A stretch of 64,000 nt of DNA from Escherichia coli (GCF_003334815.1 NZ_QOWO01000025.1), one strand, 5' to 3'. Shown: positions 2,153 through 13,001, counted from the stretch's first letter. Made by a program: numbers and translations. The notes: generated from the sequence alone by a model not told the origin.

Positions 2153-4829
2153 CGAACCCTTACGTCCCGACCCCGATCGTCTGCTGGAACAAACTGCCGC
2201 GCCGCATCGGGGGAAGCTGAAAGTTTTCTTCGGTGCCTGTGCAGGCGTCGGGAAGACCTGGGCGATGCTGGCAGAAGCCCAGCGACTGCGGGCGCAAGGG
2301 CTGGATATTGTGGTTGGCGTGGTAGAAACCCACGGGCGAAAAGATACCGCCGCCATGCTGGAAGGGCTGGCTGTTCTGCCGTTAAAACGCCAGGCGTACC
2401 GTGGGCGGCATATCAGCGAGTTTGATCTCGATGCCGCCCTCGCCCGCCGCCCGGCGCTGATCTTAATGGACGAACTGGCGCACAGTAATGCGCCAGGTTC
2501 CCGTCATCCCAAACGCTGGCAGGATATCGAAGAACTGCTGGAAGCTGGCATTGATGTTTTCACTACCGTCAACGTTCAGCATCTGGAAAGTCTGAATGAT
2601 GTGGTCAGCGGCGTCACCGGAATTCAGGTACGGGAAACCGTGCCCGATCCTTTTTTCGATGCCGCCGACGACGTGGTGCTGGTGGACTTGCCCCCGGACG
2701 ATCTGCGCCAGCGGCTGAAAGAAGGCAAAGTCTATATTGCCGGGCAGGCGGAGCGCGCCATTGAACATTTTTTCCGCAAAGGTAATCTGATCGCCCTGCG
2801 CGAACTGGCACTGCGCCGTACTGCCGATCGCGTTGATGAGCAAATGCGCGCCTGGCGGGGGCATCCTGGCGAAGAGAAAGTGTGGCACACGCGCGACGCG
2901 ATCCTTTTATGCATCGGCCATAACACCGGCAGCGAAAAACTGGTCCGCGCAGCGGCGCGGCTGGCGTCACGGCTGGGTAGCGTCTGGCACGCGGTGTATG
3001 TTGAAACCCCTGCCCTGCACCGCTTACCGGAAAAAAAACGTCGGGCAATTCTCAGCGCCTTACGTCTGGCGCAGGAACTGGGCGCGGAGACGGCAACACT
3101 TTCTGATCCAGCGGAAGAGAAAGCGGTAGTGCGTTATGCCCGTGAACATAATCTCGGCAAGATTATTCTCGGTCGCCCGGCCTCGCGCCGCTGGTGGCGT
3201 CGGGAAACGTTTGCTGACCGACTGGCGCGCATCGCCCCCGATCTCGATCAGGTGCTGGTCGCGCTTGATGAACCACCCGCCCGCACGATTAACAACGCGC
3301 CGGATAACCGCTCTTTTAAAGACAAGTGGCGTGTACAAATTCAGGGATGCGTGGTTGCCGCCGCGTTATGCGCCGTTATCACCTTAATTGCCATGCAGTG
3401 GCTGATGGCGTTTGATGCCGCCAACCTGGTGATGCTGTATCTGCTTGGCGTGGTGGTGGTGGCGCTATTTTATGGACGCTGGCCTTCAGTGGTTGCCACC
3501 GTCATTAATGTAGTGAGTTTCGATCTCTTTTTTATCGCCCCACGCGGCACGCTCGCCGTCTCTGATGTGCAATATCTGCTGACCTTCGCGGTGATGTTAA
3601 CCGTCGGGCTGGTGATCGGGAACCTTACTGCTGGCGTGCGTTATCAGGCGCGGGTAGCCCGTTACCGCGAGCAACGCACACGGCACTTATATGAAATGTC
3701 GAAAGCTCTGGCGGTGGGCCGCAGTCCGCAGGATATCGCTGCCACCAGCGAACAATTTATTGCCTCCACGTTTCATGCCCGCAGTCAGGTGTTGTTGCCC
3801 GATGACAACGGTAAATTGCAGCCGTTAACACATCCGCAAGGAATGACGCCGTGGGACGATGCCATCGCGCAGTGGAGTTTTGATAAAGGCCTGCCTGCGG
3901 GCGCGGGCACCGACACGTTACCCGGTGTACCGTACCAGATTTTGCCGCTAAAAAGCGGCGAGAAAACCTACGGGCTGGTGGTGGTGGAGCCGGGGAATCT
4001 GCGCCAGTTGATGATCCCGGAACAGCAGCGCCTGCTGGAGACGTTTACGCTGTTAGTCGCCAATGCCCTTGAGCGGCTGACGCTAACCGCCAGCGAAGAA
4101 CAGGCGCGGATGGCAAGCGAACGTGAACAGATCCGCAACGCCCTGCTGGCGGCGCTTTCGCATGATTTACGCACGCCGCTTACGGTGCTGTTTGGTCAGG
4201 CAGAAATCTTAACGCTCGATCTGGCAAGCGAAGGATCACCCCACGCCCGCCAGGCCAGCGAGATCCGTCAGCATGTGCTGAACACTACCCGACTGGTGAA
4301 TAATCTACTGGATATGGCGCGAATTCAGTCCGGCGGCTTTAATTTGAAGAAAGAGTGGTTAACGCTGGAAGAAGTAGTCGGCAGCGCGCTGCAAATGCTG
4401 GAACCGGGTTTATCGTCGCCCATCAATCTTTCTCTGCCAGAACCGCTGACCTTAATCCACGTTGACGGGCCACTCTTTGAACGGGTGCTGATTAATCTGC
4501 TGGAGAACGCGGTGAAATATGCGGGTGCGCAGGCCGAAATTGGTATCGATGCCCACGTTGAGGGCGAAAATCTACAACTGGATGTCTGGGATAACGGCCC
4601 CGGTCTTCCGCCAGGCCAGGAGCAGACGATATTTGATAAGTTTGCTCGCGGGAATAAAGAGTCGGCAGTACCGGGGGTAGGGCTTGGACTGGCAATTTGT
4701 CGGGCGATAGTGGATGTACACGGGGGCACTATTACCGCGTTCAACCGACCGGAAGGTGGTGCCTGTTTTCGTGTTACACTTCCCCAGCAAACTGCCCCTG
4801 AACTTGAAGAATTTCATGAGGATATGTGA
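2145..4829 (+). CDS. kdpD: Sensor histidine kinase KdpD (894 aa)
   Basis: ORF 2103..4829 trimmed to [16 protein letters not shown] start; N-terminal KdpD domain with Walker A (GACAGVGKT), USP-like region, 4 TM helices, HisKA (SHDLRTPL) and HATPase (GLGLAICR) motifs. Confidence 0.93.
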
Positions 4830-5503
4830 CAAACGTTCTGATTGTTGAAGATGAACAGGCTATTCGTCGCTTTCTGCGCACGGCGCTGGAGGGCGACGGG
4901 ATGCGCGTCTTTGAGGCCGAAACGCTGCAACGCGGCTTGCTGGAAGCGGCAACCCGTAAGCCAGATTTGATTATTCTCGATCTCGGCCTGCCCGATGGTG
5001 ATGGGATTGAGTTTATCCGCGACCTGCGCCAGTGGAGCGCGGTGCCGGTGATTGTGCTTTCCGCACGCAGCGAAGAGAGCGACAAAATCGCCGCGCTGGA
5101 TGCCGGAGCGGATGATTATCTGAGTAAGCCGTTTGGCATTGGCGAATTGCAGGCCCGTCTGCGCGTCGCATTACGCCGCCACTCTGCCACCACCGCGCCC
5201 GATCCGCTGGTAAAATTTTCCGATGTTACCGTCGATTTAGCCGCCCGCGTGATTCACCGGGGTGAGGAAGAGGTGCATCTCACACCAATTGAGTTCCGCC
5301 TGCTGGCGGTGCTGCTCAACAATGCCGGAAAAGTACTCACCCAGCGCCAGCTCCTTAACCAGGTGTGGGGGCCAAACGCGGTCGAACACAGTCACTATTT
5401 GCGTATTTATATGGGACATCTGCGACAAAAACTGGAACAGGATCCCGCCCGCCCACGCCATTTCATTACTGAAACCGGTATTGGCTATCGGTTTATGCTT
5501 TGA
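4826..5503 (+). CDS. kdpE: Response regulator KdpE (OmpR family, 225 aa)
   Basis: [20 protein letters not shown]; receiver domain with conserved Asp (IILDLGLPDGDG) plus winged-helix C-terminus; ATGTGA overlap with kdpD stop. Confidence 0.95.
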   Translation: MTNVLIVEDEQAIRRFLRTALEGDGMRVFEAETLQRGLLEAATRKPDLIILDLGLPDGDGIEFIRDLRQWSAVPVIVLSARSEESDKIAALDAGADDYLSKPFGIGELQARLRVALRRHSATTAPDPLVKFSDVTVDLAARVIHRGEEEVHLTPIEFRLLAVLLNNAGKVLTQRQLLNQVWGPNAVEHSHYLRIYMGHLRQKLEQDPARPRHFITETGIGYRFML

Positions 5504-5736
5504 ATATTAATTTTAATACAGCCTGCCTTTTATTAATTAAAGCCGTAATAATAAATACGGCTTTTTATCTTAAACAACACACAAAAATAACAATTCAATA
5601 TTTTATATTACTGAGTAAAAAGCTCATCATTAAATAAATTAAGATTGATCATTTTTTATTGATCACCTTCACAGTTCAACCGTATTTCCTGGATAGAATA
5701 TCTTCACCTTCATTCACATCAGGAAAGGTAAATTAA

Positions 5737-5841
5737 ATGGAAAATAACAGCCGCACTATGCCCCATATAAGGCGGACAACTCATATTATGAAGTTTGCTC
5801 ATCGCAATAGCTTCGACTTTCACTTCTTCAATGCCCGTTAG
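5737..5841 (+). CDS. speFL: Ornithine-sensing ribosome-arrest leader peptide SpeFL (34 aa)
   Basis: Small ORF MENNSRTMPHIRRTTHIMKFAHRNSFDFHFFNAR in the AT-rich leader about 260 bp upstream of speF; matches the leader peptide as I recall it; not in the supplied ORF track (below length cutoff). Confidence 0.8.
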   Translation: MENNSRTMPHIRRTTHIMKFAHRNSFDFHFFNAR

Positions 5842-6098
5842 TCTACCGACTAAGGGCACTTCAGCGTACAGGTCTTCCTGACTCTCTGTATTACAGGCAT
5901 ATGCCTGTATTCCGCAGTGCTCATTCTCTGTTAACCCTTGTATTATCAGCCACCTGACTGGTAAGGGTTTCTGCATTCTGAAAAAAGCAATCTACCTGAT
6001 TTATTTATCAGCGGGGTAACTTTGCTTTTTTCCGGCACGATCGATTTCTCATTCGAGAAATTGAGGACCTGCTATTACCTAAAATAAAGAGATGAAAA

Positions 6099-8297
6099 AT
6101 GTCAAAATTAAAAATTGCGGTTAGTGATTCTTGCCCGTACTGTTTTACCACGCAGCGAGAATGTATCTACATTAATGAAAGTCGTAATATCGATGTGGCG
6201 GCAATAGTTTTATCGCTCAACGATGTTACATGCGGAAAACTCGATGAAATCGATGCCACGGGTTATGGCATCCCGGTATTTATTGCTACTGAAAATCAAG
6301 AACGTGTACCCGCAGAGTATTTGCCCCGTATTTCGGGTGTCTTTGAGAATTGCGAATCGCGACGAGAATTTTATGGTCGCCAGTTAGAAACCGCTGCCAG
6401 CCATTATGAAACTCAACTGCGCCCACCTTTCTTCCGCGCACTGGTCGATTATGTCAATCAAGGTAACAGCGCGTTTGATTGCCCTGGTCATCAGGGCGGC
6501 GAATTTTTCCGTCGCCATCCGGCGGGGAATCAGTTTGTGGAATACTTTGGTGAGGCGCTGTTCCGTGCCGACTTGTGCAACGCCGACGTAGCGATGGGCG
6601 ATCTGCTGATTCACGAAGGCGCGCCATGCATTGCACAGCAACATGCGGCAAAAGTGTTTAATGCCGATAAAACCTACTTCGTTTTAAATGGCACTTCATC
6701 TTCTAACAAAGTGGTTTTAAACGCCCTGCTAACACCGGGTGATCTGGTGCTGTTTGATCGCAATAACCACAAATCTAACCACCACGGAGCGTTGCTACAG
6801 GCTGGTGCAACACCGGTTTATCTGGAAACGGCACGTAACCCGTATGGCTTTATCGGTGGCATTGATGCGCACTGTTTTGAAGAAAGTTACCTGCGTGAGC
6901 TGATCGCGGAAGTCGCACCGCAGCGGGCAAAAGAGGCTCGTCCTTTCCGCCTCGCTGTGATTCAGTTAGGCACCTACGACGGTACGATTTATAACGCCCG
7001 CCAAGTGGTGGATAAAATTGGTCATCTGTGTGACTACATCCTGTTTGACTCAGCATGGGTCGGCTATGAACAGTTTATTCCGATGATGGCGGACTGTTCG
7101 CCGCTGTTGCTGGATCTTAATGAGAACGATCCGGGTATTCTGGTTACGCAATCTGTGCATAAACAACAGGCTGGTTTTTCTCAGACTTCACAAATTCATA
7201 AAAAAGACAGCCACATCAAAGGGCAACAGCGTTATGTACCGCACAAACGCATGAACAACGCCTTTATGATGCACGCCTCCACCAGCCCGTTCTATCCGCT
7301 GTTTGCCGCACTGGATATCAACGCCAAAATGCATGAAGGTGTCAGCGGTCGTAATATGTGGATGGATTGTGTGGTAAATGGCATTAATGCCCGCAAACTG
7401 ATCCTCGATAACTGTCAGCATATTCGTCCGTTCGTACCTGAACTGGTGGATGGTAAACCCTGGCAGTCGTATGAAACAGCGCAAATTGCGGTTGATCTGC
7501 GCTTCTTCCAGTTTGTACCAGGGGAACACTGGCATTCTTTTGAAGGCTATGCAGAGAATCAATACTTTGTCGATCCATGCAAACTGTTGCTGACAACCCC
7601 AGGTATTGATGCACGTAACGGCGAATATGAAGCGTTCGGTGTACCCGCGACGATTCTTGCTAACTTCCTGCGCGAAAATGGCGTAGTGCCGGAAAAATGC
7701 GATCTTAACTCCATCCTCTTCCTGCTGACTCCGGCAGAAGATATGGCCAAACTTCAGCAACTTGTTGCCCTGCTGGTACGCTTCGAAAAACTGCTTGAGT
7801 CCGACGCGCCATTAGCAGAAGTGCTACCTTCCATCTACAAACAGCATGAAGAGCGCTACGCCGGTTATACCCTGCGTCAGTTGTGTCAGGAAATGCATGA
7901 TTTGTATGCCCGCCACAACGTGAAACAACTGCAAAAAGAGATGTTCCGTAAGGAGCACTTCCCACGCGTCAGCATGAATCCGCAAGAAGCCAACTACGCC
8001 TATTTACGCGGTGAAGTGGAACTGGTTCGTCTGCCGGATGCAGAAGGCCGTATCGCTGCCGAAGGTGCGCTTCCTTATCCTCCGGGTGTGCTGTGTGTTG
8101 TTCCGGGTGAAATCTGGGGTGGTGCTGTTCTGCGTTACTTCAGCGCTCTGGAAGAAGGGATCAACCTGCTGCCAGGTTTTGCACCGGAGCTGCAGGGTGT
8201 CTATATCGAAGAACATGATGGTCGTAAGCAAGTTTGGTGCTATGTCATCAAGCCTCGTGATGCGCAAAGCACCCTGTTGAAAGGGGAAAAATTATGA
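6099..8297 (+). CDS. speF: Inducible ornithine decarboxylase (732 aa)
   Basis: ORF MSKLKIAVSDSCPYCF...; fold-type I PLP decarboxylase (SVHKQQAGFSQTS lysine motif); followed by potE antiporter. Confidence 0.94.
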   Translation: MSKLKIAVSDSCPYCFTTQRECIYINESRNIDVAAIVLSLNDVTCGKLDEIDATGYGIPVFIATENQERVPAEYLPRISGVFENCESRREFYGRQLETAASHYETQLRPPFFRALVDYVNQGNSAFDCPGHQGGEFFRRHPAGNQFVEYFGEALFRADLCNADVAMGDLLIHEGAPCIAQQHAAKVFNADKTYFVLNGTSSSNKVVLNALLTPGDLVLFDRNNHKSNHHGALLQAGATPVYLETARNPYGFIGGIDAHCFEESYLRELIAEVAPQRAKEARPFRLAVIQLGTYDGTIYNARQVVDKIGHLCDYILFDSAWVGYEQFIPMMADCSPLLLDLNENDPGILVTQSVHKQQAGFSQTSQIHKKDSHIKGQQRYVPHKRMNNAFMMHASTSPFYPLFAALDINAKMHEGVSGRNMWMDCVVNGINARKLILDNCQHIRPFVPELVDGKPWQSYETAQIAVDLRFFQFVPGEHWHSFEGYAENQYFVDPCKLLLTTPGIDARNGEYEAFGVPATILANFLRENGVVPEKCDLNSILFLLTPAEDMAKLQQLVALLVRFEKLLESDAPLAEVLPSIYKQHEERYAGYTLRQLCQEMHDLYARHNVKQLQKEMFRKEHFPRVSMNPQEANYAYLRGEVELVRLPDAEGRIAAEGALPYPPGVLCVVPGEIWGGAVLRYFSALEEGINLLPGFAPELQGVYIEEHDGRKQVWCYVIKPRDAQSTLLKGEKL

Positions 8298-9613
8298 GTC
8301 AGGCTAAATCGAACAAAATGGGCGTCGTTCAGTTAACCATACTGACGATGGTCAACATGATGGGCTCCGGTATCATCATGCTGCCGACAAAGCTTGCCGA
8401 AGTCGGGACAATCTCAATTATCTCCTGGCTGGTGACAGCCGTAGGCTCAATGGCACTGGCATGGGCATTCGCAAAATGCGGTATGTTCAGCCGTAAATCA
8501 GGCGGTATGGGCGGTTATGCCGAGTATGCTTTCGGTAAATCCGGTAACTTTATGGCGAACTATACCTACGGCGTCTCACTGCTGATTGCTAACGTCGCGA
8601 TTGCTATTTCGGCGGTTGGTTACGGCACCGAACTGCTCGGCGCGAGTTTGTCGCCAGTGCAGATTGGTCTTGCGACCATCGGGGTGCTGTGGATTTGTAC
8701 CGTGGCTAACTTTGGTGGTGCGCGCATTACCGGGCAAATCAGTAGCATTACCGTGTGGGGGGTCATTATTCCGGTCGTCGGTCTGTGCATTATTGGCTGG
8801 TTCTGGTTTAGCCCGACGCTGTACGTTGATTCCTGGAATCCGCATCATGCACCGTTCTTCAGTGCGGTAGGTTCTTCCATCGCTATGACGCTGTGGGCTT
8901 TTCTTGGTCTGGAGTCTGCGTGTGCGAATACTGATGTAGTGGAAAACCCGGAACGTAATGTGCCAATCGCGGTACTCGGCGGTACGTTAGGTGCGGCGGT
9001 GATTTATATCGTCTCCACCAACGTGATTGCCGGGATTGTGCCAAATATGGAGCTGGCAAATTCAACGGCACCATTTGGTCTGGCCTTCGCGCAGATGTTC
9101 ACGCCGGAAGTGGGTAAAGTCATTATGGCGCTGATGGTGATGTCCTGCTGCGGTTCGCTACTTGGCTGGCAGTTCACCATTGCCCAGGTGTTTAAATCTT
9201 CATCTGATGAAGGCTACTTCCCTAAAATTTTCTCCCGTGTAACCAAAGTGGATGCACCGGTGCAGGGAATGTTGACCATTGTGATTATTCAGAGTGGATT
9301 GGCACTGATGACCATTAGCCCGTCGCTAAACAGTCAGTTCAACGTGCTGGTTAACCTGGCCGTGGTGACCAATATCATTCCGTATATTCTGTCAATGGCG
9401 GCATTAGTCATTATTCAGAAGGTCGCTAATGTGCCCCCCTCAAAAGCGAAAGTTGCAAACTTTGTTGCTTTTGTTGGCGCGATGTATAGCTTTTATGCGC
9501 TGTACTCATCCGGGGAAGAAGCCATGCTGTACGGTTCCATCGTGACCTTCCTTGGTTGGACACTGTATGGTCTGGTATCACCACGCTTTGAACTGAAAAA
9601 TAAACACGGTTAA
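8294..9613 (+). CDS. potE: Putrescine-ornithine antiporter (439 aa)
   Basis: 12-TM APC-family ORF MSQAKSNKMGVVQLTILTMVN; start overlaps speF stop (ATGA). Confidence 0.94.
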   Translation: MSQAKSNKMGVVQLTILTMVNMMGSGIIMLPTKLAEVGTISIISWLVTAVGSMALAWAFAKCGMFSRKSGGMGGYAEYAFGKSGNFMANYTYGVSLLIANVAIAISAVGYGTELLGASLSPVQIGLATIGVLWICTVANFGGARITGQISSITVWGVIIPVVGLCIIGWFWFSPTLYVDSWNPHHAPFFSAVGSSIAMTLWAFLGLESACANTDVVENPERNVPIAVLGGTLGAAVIYIVSTNVIAGIVPNMELANSTAPFGLAFAQMFTPEVGKVIMALMVMSCCGSLLGWQFTIAQVFKSSSDEGYFPKIFSRVTKVDAPVQGMLTIVIIQSGLALMTISPSLNSQFNVLVNLAVVTNIIPYILSMAALVIIQKVANVPPSKAKVANFVAFVGAMYSFYALYSSGEEAMLYGSIVTFLGWTLYGLVSPRFELKNKHG

Positions 9614-9630
9614 TAAAACAAAGTAAAAAA

Positions 9631-9655
9631 GGGCGATTGAATGATCGCCCTTTCT
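9631..9655 (+). terminator. Rho-independent terminator after potE
   Basis: GC hairpin gggcgat..atcgccc followed by T-run. Confidence 0.6.
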
Positions 9656-9704
9656 GTTTGTTGGCAAATAGTTCGTTATTTATGCCGCATCCGGCAGATG
9701 TAGG

Positions 9705-9838
9705 GTCTAAACGCGATCGAACACAGCAACTATTTGCGTAATTATATGGGGCATCTGCGACAAAAACTGGAACAGGATCCGGCCCGGCCTCGCCATTTTA
9801 TTACTGAAACCGGTATTGGGTATCGGTTTATGCTTTGA
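9705..9838 (+). pseudogene. Duplicated 3'-terminal fragment of kdpE (about 130 bp, roughly 90% identical to 5374..5503)
   Basis: Direct nucleotide comparison: aaacgcgatcgaacacagcaactatttgcg... vs kdpE aaacgcggtcgaacacagtcactatttgcg...; same stop codon; translates to ...NAIEHSNYLRNYMGHLRQKLEQDPARPRHFITETGIGYRFML* with no proper start. Confidence 0.8.
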
Positions 9839-9961
9839 AAAAAGTGGCAATGTATGGATAAAGTCATTTTTTATTCAAATATAAGGAACTTAATATTTAA
9901 AAAATGTTCCATACAATTCCTCATCATAAATGACACCGTAGCACACAAGGAGCAAGTAGCG

Positions 9962-10612
9962 ATGCGTGAAATGAATCAGTTAGTAAATACTGAAGATTCA
10001 GCCTGGCCAATAATCCAGAACTGGTTAAAAGACGCCACAAACCATACCGAACTCTTACCGGTTAATAAAGATTTAGCCGAAACCGCACTTTATCAATTAC
10101 AGGTGACAACAAAATCACCGATGGGTGCGCTTGTCTATGGCTCCGGAGGTCTGCTGATTGATAATGGTTGGTTACGCATAGCAGGATCTGGTCACCCCCG
10201 GTTGCCACGAGATCCAGTAAGTTGGACACAACGCCCTGAATTCGCAGGCGTGCGGGCTTTACCCATCGCTGACGATGTCGCAGGGGGAATTTTTGCTCTT
10301 AATGGTGGCGATCTTGGGGAAGATACTGGCTGCGTTTATTATTTTGCGCCAGATACGCTGAATTGGGAAAGTCTGGAAGTTGGATATTCTGAGTTTCTTC
10401 AGTGGGCATTATCCGGTGATTTAGATACCTTCTATGAAAATGTACGATGGCAGCAATGGCGAGAAGACGTAATAAAATTATCGGCAACGGAAGCCTTCAC
10501 GTTCTACCCTTTCTTATGGGTACAAAGTGAAGAAGCAAGAACAAGAAAAGTTATTTCGCTTACTGAACTCTGGGAAATGCAGTATCAAATGAAAGAAACA
10601 TTCACGCAATAA
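9962..10612 (+). CDS. ybfG: Conserved hypothetical protein (YbfG-like)
   Basis: ORF 9854..10612; most likely start at ATG 9962 (MREMNQLVNTE) preceded by AAGGAG RBS; position between potE and ybfP matches K-12 ybfG; symbol from synteny only. Confidence 0.55.
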   Translation: MREMNQLVNTEDSAWPIIQNWLKDATNHTELLPVNKDLAETALYQLQVTTKSPMGALVYGSGGLLIDNGWLRIAGSGHPRLPRDPVSWTQRPEFAGVRALPIADDVAGGIFALNGGDLGEDTGCVYYFAPDTLNWESLEVGYSEFLQWALSGDLDTFYENVRWQQWREDVIKLSATEAFTFYPFLWVQSEEARTRKVISLTELWEMQYQMKETFTQ

Positions 10613-10652
10613 GACATGTTCAGGTCCGGGTTTCATTCCCGGACTCACTATT

Positions 10653-11147
10653 TTAATGTGTATTTATCGCTTTCAATTCTTGCTGGCAATTTTCTGACTG
10701 GCAGCGTCGTAACTCAATAATCCCGACATGCATCATCGAGCCAAAAAATCCGCTTTCGCTGACATAATCCTCATTGACTATCGGTCGAGTGCCGGGCTTG
10801 CCCTGGCAAACCCGCATAAAAAATGAGGTGTAGCATTGCCAACCGGGATTTAAACCGACCTTTTCTTGTGCTGACATATTATGAAGATAAGTAAGTTCTT
10901 TTTCGTTCCCGCCTGACAACTGCCAGCGGCGGGTATTATCAGGTAAGTTATCACCACGGCAATTTGTCTTACACCGGAAAGGTGCAATATTTACCGCAAT
11001 GCTACCCGTTAATCCTCTGGTTTTATCTTTAGGGGTCAGTAACCAGTCGCCAGCTAATGATGATTGTTCAGGTTGGGCGCATGCAGTCAGCAGTAATGTG
11101 GCGGTAATTAGTGACACTATGACGACCAGACTCCTGTTGGTCTTCAT
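10653..11147 (-). CDS. ybfP: Putative lipoprotein YbfP (164 aa)
   Basis: ORF with signal peptide and lipobox (LLLTAC); cysteine-rich. Confidence 0.75.
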   Translation of the reverse strand: MKTNRSLVVIVSLITATLLLTACAQPEQSSLAGDWLLTPKDKTRGLTGSIAVNIAPFRCKTNCRGDNLPDNTRRWQLSGGNEKELTYLHNMSAQEKVGLNPGWQCYTSFFMRVCQGKPGTRPIVNEDYVSESGFFGSMMHVGIIELRRCQSENCQQELKAINTH

Positions 11148-11197
11148 TGGGATTTCCTTGAGCTACTCAGTTTGTTGACAAAGTGTTCGTTGTTTTT

Positions 11198-11296
11198 GCC
11201 GGATGCGGCGTGAACGCCTTATCCGGCCTACAAAATCGCTTAAATTCAATATATTGCACCATCCTCGTAGGCCTGATAAGCGTAGCGCATCAGGCA
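11198..11296. repeat. REP/BIME element (two inverted REP units)
   Basis: gccggatgcggcgtgaacgccttatccggcctac and inverted partner gtaggcctgataagcgtagcgcatcaggc; canonical E. coli REP consensus. Confidence 0.85.
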
Positions 11297-11360
11297 ATTC
11301 TGTGTTTGTCATACGTAAAAAAGGGCGATCTTGCGACCGCCCTTTTTTTATTAAATGTGT

Positions 11361-13001
11361 TTACGCGTTTTTCAGAACTTCGCTAACAATCTCAACCGCT
11401 TCTTTCTCAATCTGCTTGCGATGTTCTTCACCGAGGAAGCTTTCGCAGTAGATCTTATATGCGTCTTCCGTGCCTGACGGACGCGCGGCGAACCAGCCGT
11501 TGTCAGTCATCACTTTCAGACCGCCAATAGAAGCACCGTTGCCCGGAGCAGCAGTCAGGCGCGCGGTGATCGGGTCACCTGCCAGGGTGCTGGCGCTCAC
11601 CATTTCCGGAGACAGCTTAGACAGCGCCGCTTTTTGTGCGGAAGTCGCAGCTGCCTGCAAACGGTTGTAGCTCGGCGCACCAAAGCGTTTTGCCAGTTCG
11701 TTGTAGTGTTCCTGCGGGTTCTTACCGGTGACAGCGGTGATTTCCGCCGCCAGCAGACACATGATGATGCCGTCTTTGTCGGTGGACCACGGCGTGCCGT
11801 CGAAACGCAGGAAGGAAGCCCCTGCACTCTCTTCGCCGCCAAAGCCGAAGCTGCCGTCGAACAGACCATCGACAAACCATTTGAAACCTACCGGGACTTC
11901 TACCAGTTTACGGCCCAAGTCGTTGACCACACGGTCGATCATCGCAGATGAAACCAGCGTTTTACCGACGGCAACATCTTTGCCCCACTGCGGACGATGC
12001 TGGAACAGGTAATTGATTGCCACCGCCAGGTAGTGGTTCGGATTCATCAAACCTGCCGGAGTGACGATACCGTGACGGTCATAATCCGGGTCGTTAGCAA
12101 ACGCCAGATCGAACTTATCACGCAGTGCCAGCAGGCCCGCCATCGCACACTCGGAGGAGCAGTCCATACGGATCGCGCCGTCTTTATCAAGGTGCATAAA
12201 GCGGAAGGTTTGATCGACCTGATCGTTAACGATAGTCAGGTTGAGGTTGTAATACTCGCCAATACGCTTCCAGTATTCGATACCGGAACCGCCCAGCGGA
12301 TCAACGCCCAGCGTCAGGCCCGCTTTCTGAATCGCGGCCATATCAACGATATCGGCCAGACCTTCCACGAACGGCTGCACCAGATCCTGCTCTTTCACAT
12401 GACCGGATGCCATCGCTTCGTCGAGGGAGATACGCTTCACGCCTTTCAGGCCATCGGCCAGCAGTGCGTTGGCCCTGTCTTCCACCACTTTAGTGACGTT
12501 GGTATCAGCCGGGCCACCATTTGGCGGATTGTATTTGATTCCACCATCTTCCGGCGGGTTATGGGACGGTGTAATCACGATACCGTCTGCCAGCGGGCCA
12601 CCTTTTTTATTGTGAACCAGGATGGCATTGGAAACGGCAGGCGTCGGGGTGAAGCCATTGTTTTCCTGCACAATGACATCAACGCCGTTCGCTGCCAGCA
12701 CTTCCAGAACGGAAATGAATGCAGGTTCGGACAGGGCGTGAGTATCTTTACCCACATAGCAAGGGCCAGTGATGCCGTTTTTCGCACGTTCTTCAGCAAT
12801 TGCCTGAGCGATCGCCAGAATGTGCGGCTCGTTAAAGCTGTGGCGCGCTGCACTGCCACGGTGACCGGAAGTACCGAATTTCACCGCGTGCTCCGCATTC
12901 CCTGCTTCTGGTTTCAGTACATAATATTGCGCCGTCAGTTGGGCGACGTTAATCAAATCACTCTGTTGTGCAGGTTGGCCTGCACGATTGTGGATTGCCA
13001 T
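11361..13001 (-). CDS. pgm: Phosphoglucomutase (546 aa)
   Basis: ORF 11361..13052 trimmed to [16 protein letters not shown] start; active-site TSGHRG / TPSHNP motifs. Confidence 0.93.

Follow-up and report, generated by a model that had tools for sequence, protein, structure and literature searches.

The Escherichia coli pseudogene ybfI is a remnant of the kdpE 3' end and probably the scar of one old rearrangement within Escherichia

How did a second copy of the end of kdpE come to lie beyond speF and potE in Escherichia coli, 4.3 kb from the gene itself? We addressed this question in a window of 64,000 nucleotides, by which we mean the whole stretch of E. coli DNA that was analysed. Its gene order is kdpD-kdpE-speFL-speF-potE-fragment-DUF2625 (ybfG)-ybfP-pgm, with kdpE and pgm convergent, and from the kdpD 3' end to pgm (window 4659-11759) it differs from MG1655 at 4 of 7,101 positions. 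A preliminary description of this DNA had reported a match of about 90% between 9709-9838 and 5374-5503, the kdpE stop codon included, which our alignment confirmed and extended by 14 nt in the 5' direction and 2 nt in the 3' direction. Positions 9695-9840 align with the kdpE 3' end (5360-5505) on one ungapped diagonal with an offset of 4335, with 132 of 146 positions identical (14 mismatches, 0 gaps, 90.4%). Far from falling below significance, the match scored E=1.5e-52 in a blastn comparison of the fetched loci, and a repeat search of the window returned the same kdpE-tail pair as 145 nt at 90%. The elements of the locus are as follows.

4826-5503, plus strand: intact kdpE (225 aa), whose 3' end supplies the parent repeat copy (5360-5505, 146 nt with the stop and the next 2 nt) (ORF list, RefSeq, alignment)
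5504-6800, plus strand: K-type block, comprising the kdpE-speF intergenic region, speFL and the first ~700 nt of speF (identity profile)
5737-5841: speFL, within the K-type block and cassette C1
6099-8297, plus strand: speF, cassette C1 (ORF list, RefSeq)
8294-9613, plus strand: potE, cassette C1 (ORF list, RefSeq)
9623-9655, no strand: term1, the potE terminator hairpin (9626-9655) (terminator scan, repeat search)
9656-9695, no strand: X' (9656-9682) and REP head (9683-9695), a diverged duplicate, ~40 nt long, of X-REP1 (11170-11210) and the left side of the illegitimate junction
9695-9840, plus strand: kdpE' fragment (ybfI), annotated as 9689-9838
9841-9961, plus strand: spacer of 121 nt between the kdpE' stop and DUF2625
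9962-10612, plus strand: DUF2625 (ybfG), cassette C2, an intact ORF in the window
10653-11147, minus strand: ybfP, a lipoprotein gene, cassette C2
11170-11296, no strand: BIME, made up of X (11170-11196), REP1 (11197-11231) and inverted REP2 (11267-11296), the shared right flank of the slot
11315-11350, no strand: term2, the pgm-side terminator hairpin and partner of term1

Cassette C1 denotes speFL-speF-potE(-term1), which is bracketed by the two kdpE-tail copies, and cassette C2 denotes spacer-DUF2625-ybfP. The fragment corresponds to kdpE codons ~179-225 plus the stop; the TGA is included in the match with its register kept, and the N-terminal part and start codon of the gene are missing. 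Translation in the kdpE frame gives QM*GLNAIEHSNYLRNYMGHLRQKLEQDPARPRHFITETGIGYRFML*, where a TGG-to-TAG change has created an in-frame stop at 9701-9703 with no start codon upstream, in agreement with the earlier description of a gene remnant. Synonymous third-position changes account for 8 of the 14 differences from kdpE, including all 6 in the last 100 nt, and fragment alleles of the type found in strain 3150 also carry a 1-nt deletion. The homology that includes the stop, the broken coding frame and the descent from the orthologous gene rather than a paralogue are all features of a truncated-gene pseudogene. The MG1655 RefSeq record already lists the same object as pseudogene ybfI (b4636, 716721-716870, equivalent to window 9689-9838), and RefSeq/PGAP labels it a partial winged helix-turn-helix pseudogene with its N terminus missing. 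The fragment, annotated as ybfI in E. coli K-12, is what is left of a kdpE 3' end and has no function. That annotation carries no origin or population context, to which we add the structure of the junction, a single origin, the frequencies of the haplotypes and the products of deletion; the literature searched made no mention of an E. coli ybfI and returned only Bacillus genes of that name.

The immediate surroundings of the fragment were also as originally described, with a potE terminator (hairpin 9626-9655) and a partial REP (head at 9683-9695) before it and ybfG (ORF 9962-10612) after it. Taken across the interval, the order of elements is potE-term1-X'-REP head, kdpE'-spacer-DUF2625-ybfP-X-REP-REP-term2-pgm. 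REP motifs are abundant in the window (20 occurrences versus 3.3 expected), and the repeat search paired term1 (9623-9653) with term2 (11315-11345) as a direct repeat of 31 nt, 81% identical, at a distance of 1,692 bp. Rfam gave a sub-threshold match to naRNA4, a REP-derived nucleoid-associated RNA, at 11164-11228 (41.5 bits versus 59.5). DUF2625 is intact in the window and disrupted in both MG1655, where it is the pseudogene ybfG, and ER2796, where it is annotated with an 'internal stop'. Two of the four differences between the window and MG1655, at 10170 and 10287, fall inside ybfG.

The preliminary description had taken the fragment to be the scar of a relatively recent placement of speF-potE beside kdpE, and this part of the claim did not survive comparison with other species. 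We surveyed one genome per species (GTDB representatives) with a KdpE query, which yielded 80 loci. The kdpE gene is followed directly by pgm in Serratia, Pantoea, Dickeya, Pectobacterium, Yersinia, Rouxiella, several to many Citrobacter, Enterobacter asburiae and two Escherichia species. Between kdpE and pgm, speF-potE is present in E. albertii, the E69 lineage, other Citrobacter, Kluyvera, many Enterobacter and Raoultella, and the order kdpE-speF-potE-pgm also occurs in Lelliottia, Cedecea, Trabulsiella, Phytobacter, Pluralibacter and Atlantibacter. A search of every locus with the kdpE tail of that same locus revealed no second copy in any genus that carries speF-potE. Likewise, neither DUF2625 nor ybfP adjoined kdpE outside E. 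coli in the 80 loci, and blastn found no homologue of the fragment spacer (9841-9961) in any non-E. coli kdpE locus. Species without speF-potE thus show kdpE-pgm and never the kdpE-ybfG contiguity that had been proposed as a check, so the fragment is not a general footprint of speF-potE arrival; within E. coli, such contiguity does exist in 3 of 5,426 complete genomes, all of which are secondary deletions (see below). Consequently the scar is no guide to when speF-potE, a module found at this position across many genera, arrived.

Framework sequences of the E69 type reveal how the joint is built. E69 has potE-term1-X-REP-REP-term2-pgm with no insert, where X is a sequence of ~27 nt preceding the first REP, and a 38-nt stretch of this genome (14906-14943) can be aligned with X'-REP as well as with X-REP of the window, which are 81% identical to each other over 42 nt (blastn). 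At the joint, a duplicate of the right flank, consisting of X' and 13 nt from the start of a REP, therefore runs directly into a duplicate of the left flank, the final 146 nt of kdpE; REP and kdpE have at most 1-3 bases in common where they meet. REP sequences are said to have been found at duplication join points in Salmonella by Shyamala et al. in 1990. The present locus is similar in that the junction has one of its sides 13 nt inside a REP, REPs frame the slot and several haplotypes of the slot break at REPs. Unlike in a REP-REP exchange, however, only the left partner is a REP (its head, 9683-9695); on the right lies kdpE coding DNA at codon ~179, which points to REP-adjacent illegitimate recombination. 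Nor does the block resemble the product of a transposon or insertion sequence, with duplicated flanks of 146 nt and ~40 nt instead of a target duplication of 2-14 nt and no transposase in the block; IS1 occurs only as a later insertion in some genomes.

A further comparison is with att-flanked genomic islands, in which an accessory block likewise lies between direct repeats (attL and attR) of the 3' end of a flanking gene and is excised precisely by recombination between them. Unlike those islands, the block at 5504-9694 contains only speFL, speF and potE and no integrase or other recombinase gene, and the repeat is 146 nt long and 10% diverged rather than a short identical core. Excision crossovers were not confined to a fixed core, falling at 5486-5505 in strain CUWW10, 5465-5505 in strain GF4-3 and 5417-5445 in metagenome contig L101; such differing points within identical stretches argue for homologous rather than site-specific recombination.

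We next consider the source and age of the fragment. It is 88-90% identical to kdpE of the E. coli group, 85.5% to that of E. albertii and at most 82% to those of Citrobacter and the other sampled genera. Half of its 14 differences (7) fall at synonymous sites that vary among aligned Escherichia kdpE alleles, 6 of them also among E. coli-labelled alleles and 1 only in the Escherichia locus L007, and at 4 of these 7 sites the fragment has the state of the E69 allele. These similarities identify an Escherichia kdpE as the source, and the 10% divergence reflects both polymorphism among alleles and decay as a pseudogene. Three to four fragment alleles have diverged from one another, by ~8% in addition to the 1-nt deletion. 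An identical REP/kdpE junction (REP head, codon ~179) occurs in the alleles of the window, strain 3150, strain 2020CK-00188 (L106) and locus L090, and the fragment alleles have in common four private states found in no intact kdpE (TAG, GGT, AAC and AAT). The shared junction and private mutations indicate that the fragment is probably the scar of a single, old event inside Escherichia, upholding the earlier view of an old rearrangement scar. The spacer beside the fragment differs by 1.7% between alleles and C2 by 3.6%. The contrast between 8% in the fragment and 1.7% in the spacer suggests that the fragment has probably exchanged sequence with resident kdpE alleles by gene conversion, which blurs dating. 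A metagenome-derived allele spanning the kdpE tail, spacer, DUF2625 and the end of ybfP was 88% identical to the window.

Two copies of a kdpE tail in direct orientation would allow homologous recombination to delete speFL-speF-potE precisely. We searched 5,426 complete E. coli genomes with a chimeric query in which kdpE was joined to the downstream flank of the fragment, revealing three genomes with kdpE contiguous with ybfG and no speFL-speF-potE (KL53, CUWW10 and GF4-3). In KL53, an IS1-associated deletion of window 5568-9976 has removed speFL-speF-potE together with the fragment. CUWW10 has K-12-type states at all 14 diagnostic sites followed by the flank of the fragment, placing the crossover in the last 20 identical nt (5486-5505); the strain shares identical KdpD, KdpE and Pgm proteins with the K-12-type reference ER2796 and matches the window at ~99% in the flanks. 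GF4-3 carries another kdpE allele and a crossover window of 5465-5505. In both CUWW10 and GF4-3, the flanks are ~98-99% identical to the window, and an intact kdpE runs into the spacer and C2 with C1 absent, so that the intervening DNA is precisely lost and one hybrid repeat is left. These genomes show that the 146-bp repeat pair recombines and that C1 has been precisely deleted in CUWW10 and GF4-3; the kdpE-ybfG genomes are revertants, not relics.

Metagenomes yielded comparable arrangements. A degenerate scan returned eight contigs, of which those with kdpE-C2 look like revertants or chimeras. The kdpE-C2 arrangement was found in four human-gut contigs (L099, L101, L102 and L104), including L101, which switches from kdpE-type to fragment-type sequence within 5417-5445, the longest identical run. 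These contigs are short, with recorded coverage of only 1.5x for L101 and 4.3x for L102, and all four may be chimeras across shared stretches of 20-41 nt, given that three other metagenome contigs break inside the repeat.

Across the 5,426 complete genomes, the potE-fragment-DUF2625 junction was present in 1,827 (about 34%), and potE was contiguous with pgm in 3,197, meaning that ~59% of E. coli are without the fragment. The gene speF itself was detected in 5,126 of the same genomes. The polymorphic unit in E. coli is the ~1.7-kb block of fragment, DUF2625 and ybfP, not speF-potE. This block is bounded by the diverged hairpin copies term1 and term2. In LF82 and a STEC strain, for example, the potE-pgm gap is 55-56 bp and contains a single terminator without fragment, DUF2625 or ybfP. 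In the common short form, potE-side sequence lies to the left of a term2-type hairpin, as expected of a deletion between the identical 15-nt GTAAAAAAGGGCGAT of term1 and term2; we infer the polarity of this change. Recombination between the two terminators would remove the fragment-C2 block and so give rise to the short potE-pgm form. The insert-free form of the E69 type (potE-term1-X-REP-REP-term2-pgm) was rare, occurring in 2 of 5,426 E. coli genomes. Many E. coli genomes have an IS1 between the fragment and DUF2625 (window ~9850-9977), which is also the position of the IS1 in KL53. The ~300 of 5,426 genomes that gave no megablast match to the 5' part of K-12 speF suggest that it may not be unusual for the inducible ornithine decarboxylase to be lost or to decay, and speF of strain 2020CK-00188 (4188-6386 in its locus) is annotated with an internal stop.

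The reading that we consider likely is that the kdpE-pgm interval is a slot for alternative cassettes, C1 or C2, and that the K-12 type has both in tandem, fused by duplicated flanks. The slot can be empty (kdpE-BIME-pgm), contain C1 or contain C2, and the order in which the haplotypes would have arisen is based on a few outgroups; an intact slot with C2 alone was seen only as a deletion derivative. The REP downstream of potE on a C1 chromosome would have been joined to kdpE codon ~179 on a C2 chromosome, and the other side would have been closed by ordinary homologous exchange. The result would be C1 and C2 in tandem, with a joint consisting of a copied right flank and a copied left flank. 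Continuity of the fragment with the ybfG-side spacer implies that a full kdpE once abutted ybfG, and we infer both the existence of a kdpE-C2 progenitor and the type of event that joined C1 and C2. As to the recipient, we lean slightly towards C2 plus the kdpE tail having entered a C1 chromosome.

The opposite polarity would generate the same joint and is structurally as good. Under this alternative, which we hold to be rather unlikely, kdpE-ybfG-ybfP-pgm was ancestral, and speFL-speF-potE-term1-X-REP, either linear or circular with a kdpE tail, was integrated by a crossover in kdpE that duplicated or displaced the kdpE 3' end. Escherichia lineages without speF-potE do exist (L006, L007 and L094), the reverse reaction, loss of speF-potE between the repeat copies, is observed, and the exclusively synonymous differences in the 3' 100 nt are consistent with two functional alleles brought together. 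However, E. albertii, the E69-like lineage and many genera have kdpE-speF-potE-pgm without a scar, ybfG-ybfP lies beside kdpE nowhere outside E. coli, and natural kdpE-ybfG haplotypes carrying a kdpE allele of their own did not come to light. The last point reflects several searches for a progenitor, that is, an intact kdpE of the allelic lineage of the fragment followed by C2. None was present among the 80 species loci. Searches for DUF2625 and YbfP homologues with seven genomic contexts returned only the fragment-bearing arrangement, L094 and unrelated contexts of distant DUF2625, and scanning metagenomes for a pattern peculiar to the L091 allele gave no hits. L094, an E. coli assembly (GCA_974498655.1), has kdpE-REP-REP-ybfP-X-REP-term2-pgm and is without C1, DUF2625 and the fragment.

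A deeply divergent segment at the start of C1 might have been the mark of such an import. Compared with LF82, the STEC strain, E69 and E. albertii, the window is 41-48% identical just after the kdpE stop and 61-89% from there to ~6800; beyond ~6800, most bins are 91-100% identical to LF82 and STEC, and lower values are scattered among them. The K-type block was present in ~1,709 of the 5,426 complete genomes versus 3,318 for the alternative L-type, and none of the 80 enterobacterial loci contained a close donor of it. At the level of the SpeFL peptide, only two N-terminal residues differ (S5N and T7L). Strain 2020CK-00188 has an L-type block together with the identical fragment junction, and it matches the K-type strain 3150 at 99.3-99.5% across the fragment and C2. 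The occurrence of the same junction with L-type and K-type shows that the junction and the K-type block are historically independent. The block is therefore ruled out as the mark of an imported speF module, for which no donor genus was found either, and this further weighs against the opposite polarity. We also withdraw the suggestion of a younger age for the K-type block than for the fragment: the window and strain 3150 are 96-98% identical there, about as in the spacer and C2, and it is the fragment that is the outlier.

An improbable alternative is that the kdpE tail and BIME were first duplicated in tandem and the two cassettes then inserted separately into the copies. Such a duplication does occur at this locus in Escherichia sp. 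MOD1-EC7003 (L007), a genome without speF-potE, where copies 185 bp apart give a 195-nt alignment at 95% identity (9651-10029). The duplicated unit comprises the last ~55-58 nt of kdpE and REP-REP-term2, and its junction, 'GACCGCCC' / 'CCGCCATTT', joins the terminator stem at a similar CCGCCC motif in kdpE (~5448). Like the window, this genome has a kdpE tail remnant between kdpE and pgm near REPs and a terminator copy, but the two duplications are independent, that of MOD1-EC7003 having another junction, a shorter remnant, no cassettes and more similar copies (95%). The terminator stem and ~5448 meet in L007 as opposed to the REP head and 5360 in the window, three or more events are needed versus two, and the position of X' on the potE side of the joint better fits fused cassette flanks. 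Together, these arrangements mark the kdpE-pgm interval as a hotspot for rearrangements associated with REPs and terminators.

Base composition and homologue distribution bear on a highly improbable alternative, in which horizontal transfer brought in the fragment along with DUF2625-ybfP, its source being a foreign response-regulator gene, either a paralogue or one from another genus. GC content is ~48-54% in C1 and ~43-47% in C2, the lowest of the region, versus 55-61% in the kdp genes and 55% in pgm. The low GC of both cassettes fits accessory cassettes, and that of C2 would suit an import; both cassettes are lower than their flanks, which does not settle the polarity. Outside E. coli contexts, homologues of DUF2625 reach no more than ~57% identity (Erwinia ~57%; Pantoea and Kosakonia 51-53%), which is also compatible with a foreign source. 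For YbfP, a near-orphan without a Pfam domain, 5.8 billion proteins included 27 relatives, and the contexts examined were all from Escherichia. Against a foreign origin of the fragment itself, its nearest relatives are Escherichia kdpE genes (88-90%, compared with at most 82% for other genera), the match runs through the stop codon and its synonymous-site states are also seen in aligned Escherichia kdpE alleles. A distant DUF2625 homologue (53% identity, L093 3475-6675) adjoins PAAR, Imm74 and DcrB-domain genes, which hints that some DUF2625 proteins lie in toxin/immunity neighbourhoods.

It is scarcely credible that the fragment has been retained for a function, as a DUF2625 promoter or 5' region, a small ORF (9734-9838, TTG start) or a 3' UTR-derived RNA, since the better conservation of its 3' 100 nt than of its 5' part and a weak promoter-like match whose first hexamer (TTGAAA at 9835) overlaps its stop are set against promoter-like matches no more frequent than in shuffled sequence (5 versus 3.5 expected), a terminator (term1) upstream, a 1-nt deletion in 3150-type alleles, no Rfam family at threshold over the fragment (the one match, to MicX at 9616-9801, scored 34 bits versus a gathering threshold of 75 and is probably spurious) and its absence from about 59% of E. 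coli. With a terminator upstream, a broken frame, no start codon, Rfam matches below threshold and a pseudogene annotation, the fragment alone appears to do nothing today and shows no sign of function.

Returning to the slot with alternative cassettes, it is possible, although we say so tentatively, that this REP-framed slot and its duplicated flanks make speFL-speF-potE and DUF2625-ybfP independently and recurrently losable and re-acquirable, in which case ybfI would be a working part of a population-level switch for gain and loss of an acid-stress operon rather than debris. The locus provides a natural example of how REP/BIME-rich gaps between convergent genes generate alternative haplotypes, and of a 146-bp repeat at 90% identity that suffices to delete a 4.3-kb operon in nature; its significance beyond E. 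coli genome history is small. For studies of SpeFL and speF regulation, it is relevant that the speF leader region of K-12 is a minority, deeply divergent allele. In the speFL-speF gap of the L-type strain LF82 (L002 8627-8680), we also observed a dispersed repeat of ~50 nt, with a median of 4 matches per E. coli genome, that is absent from the K-12 type.
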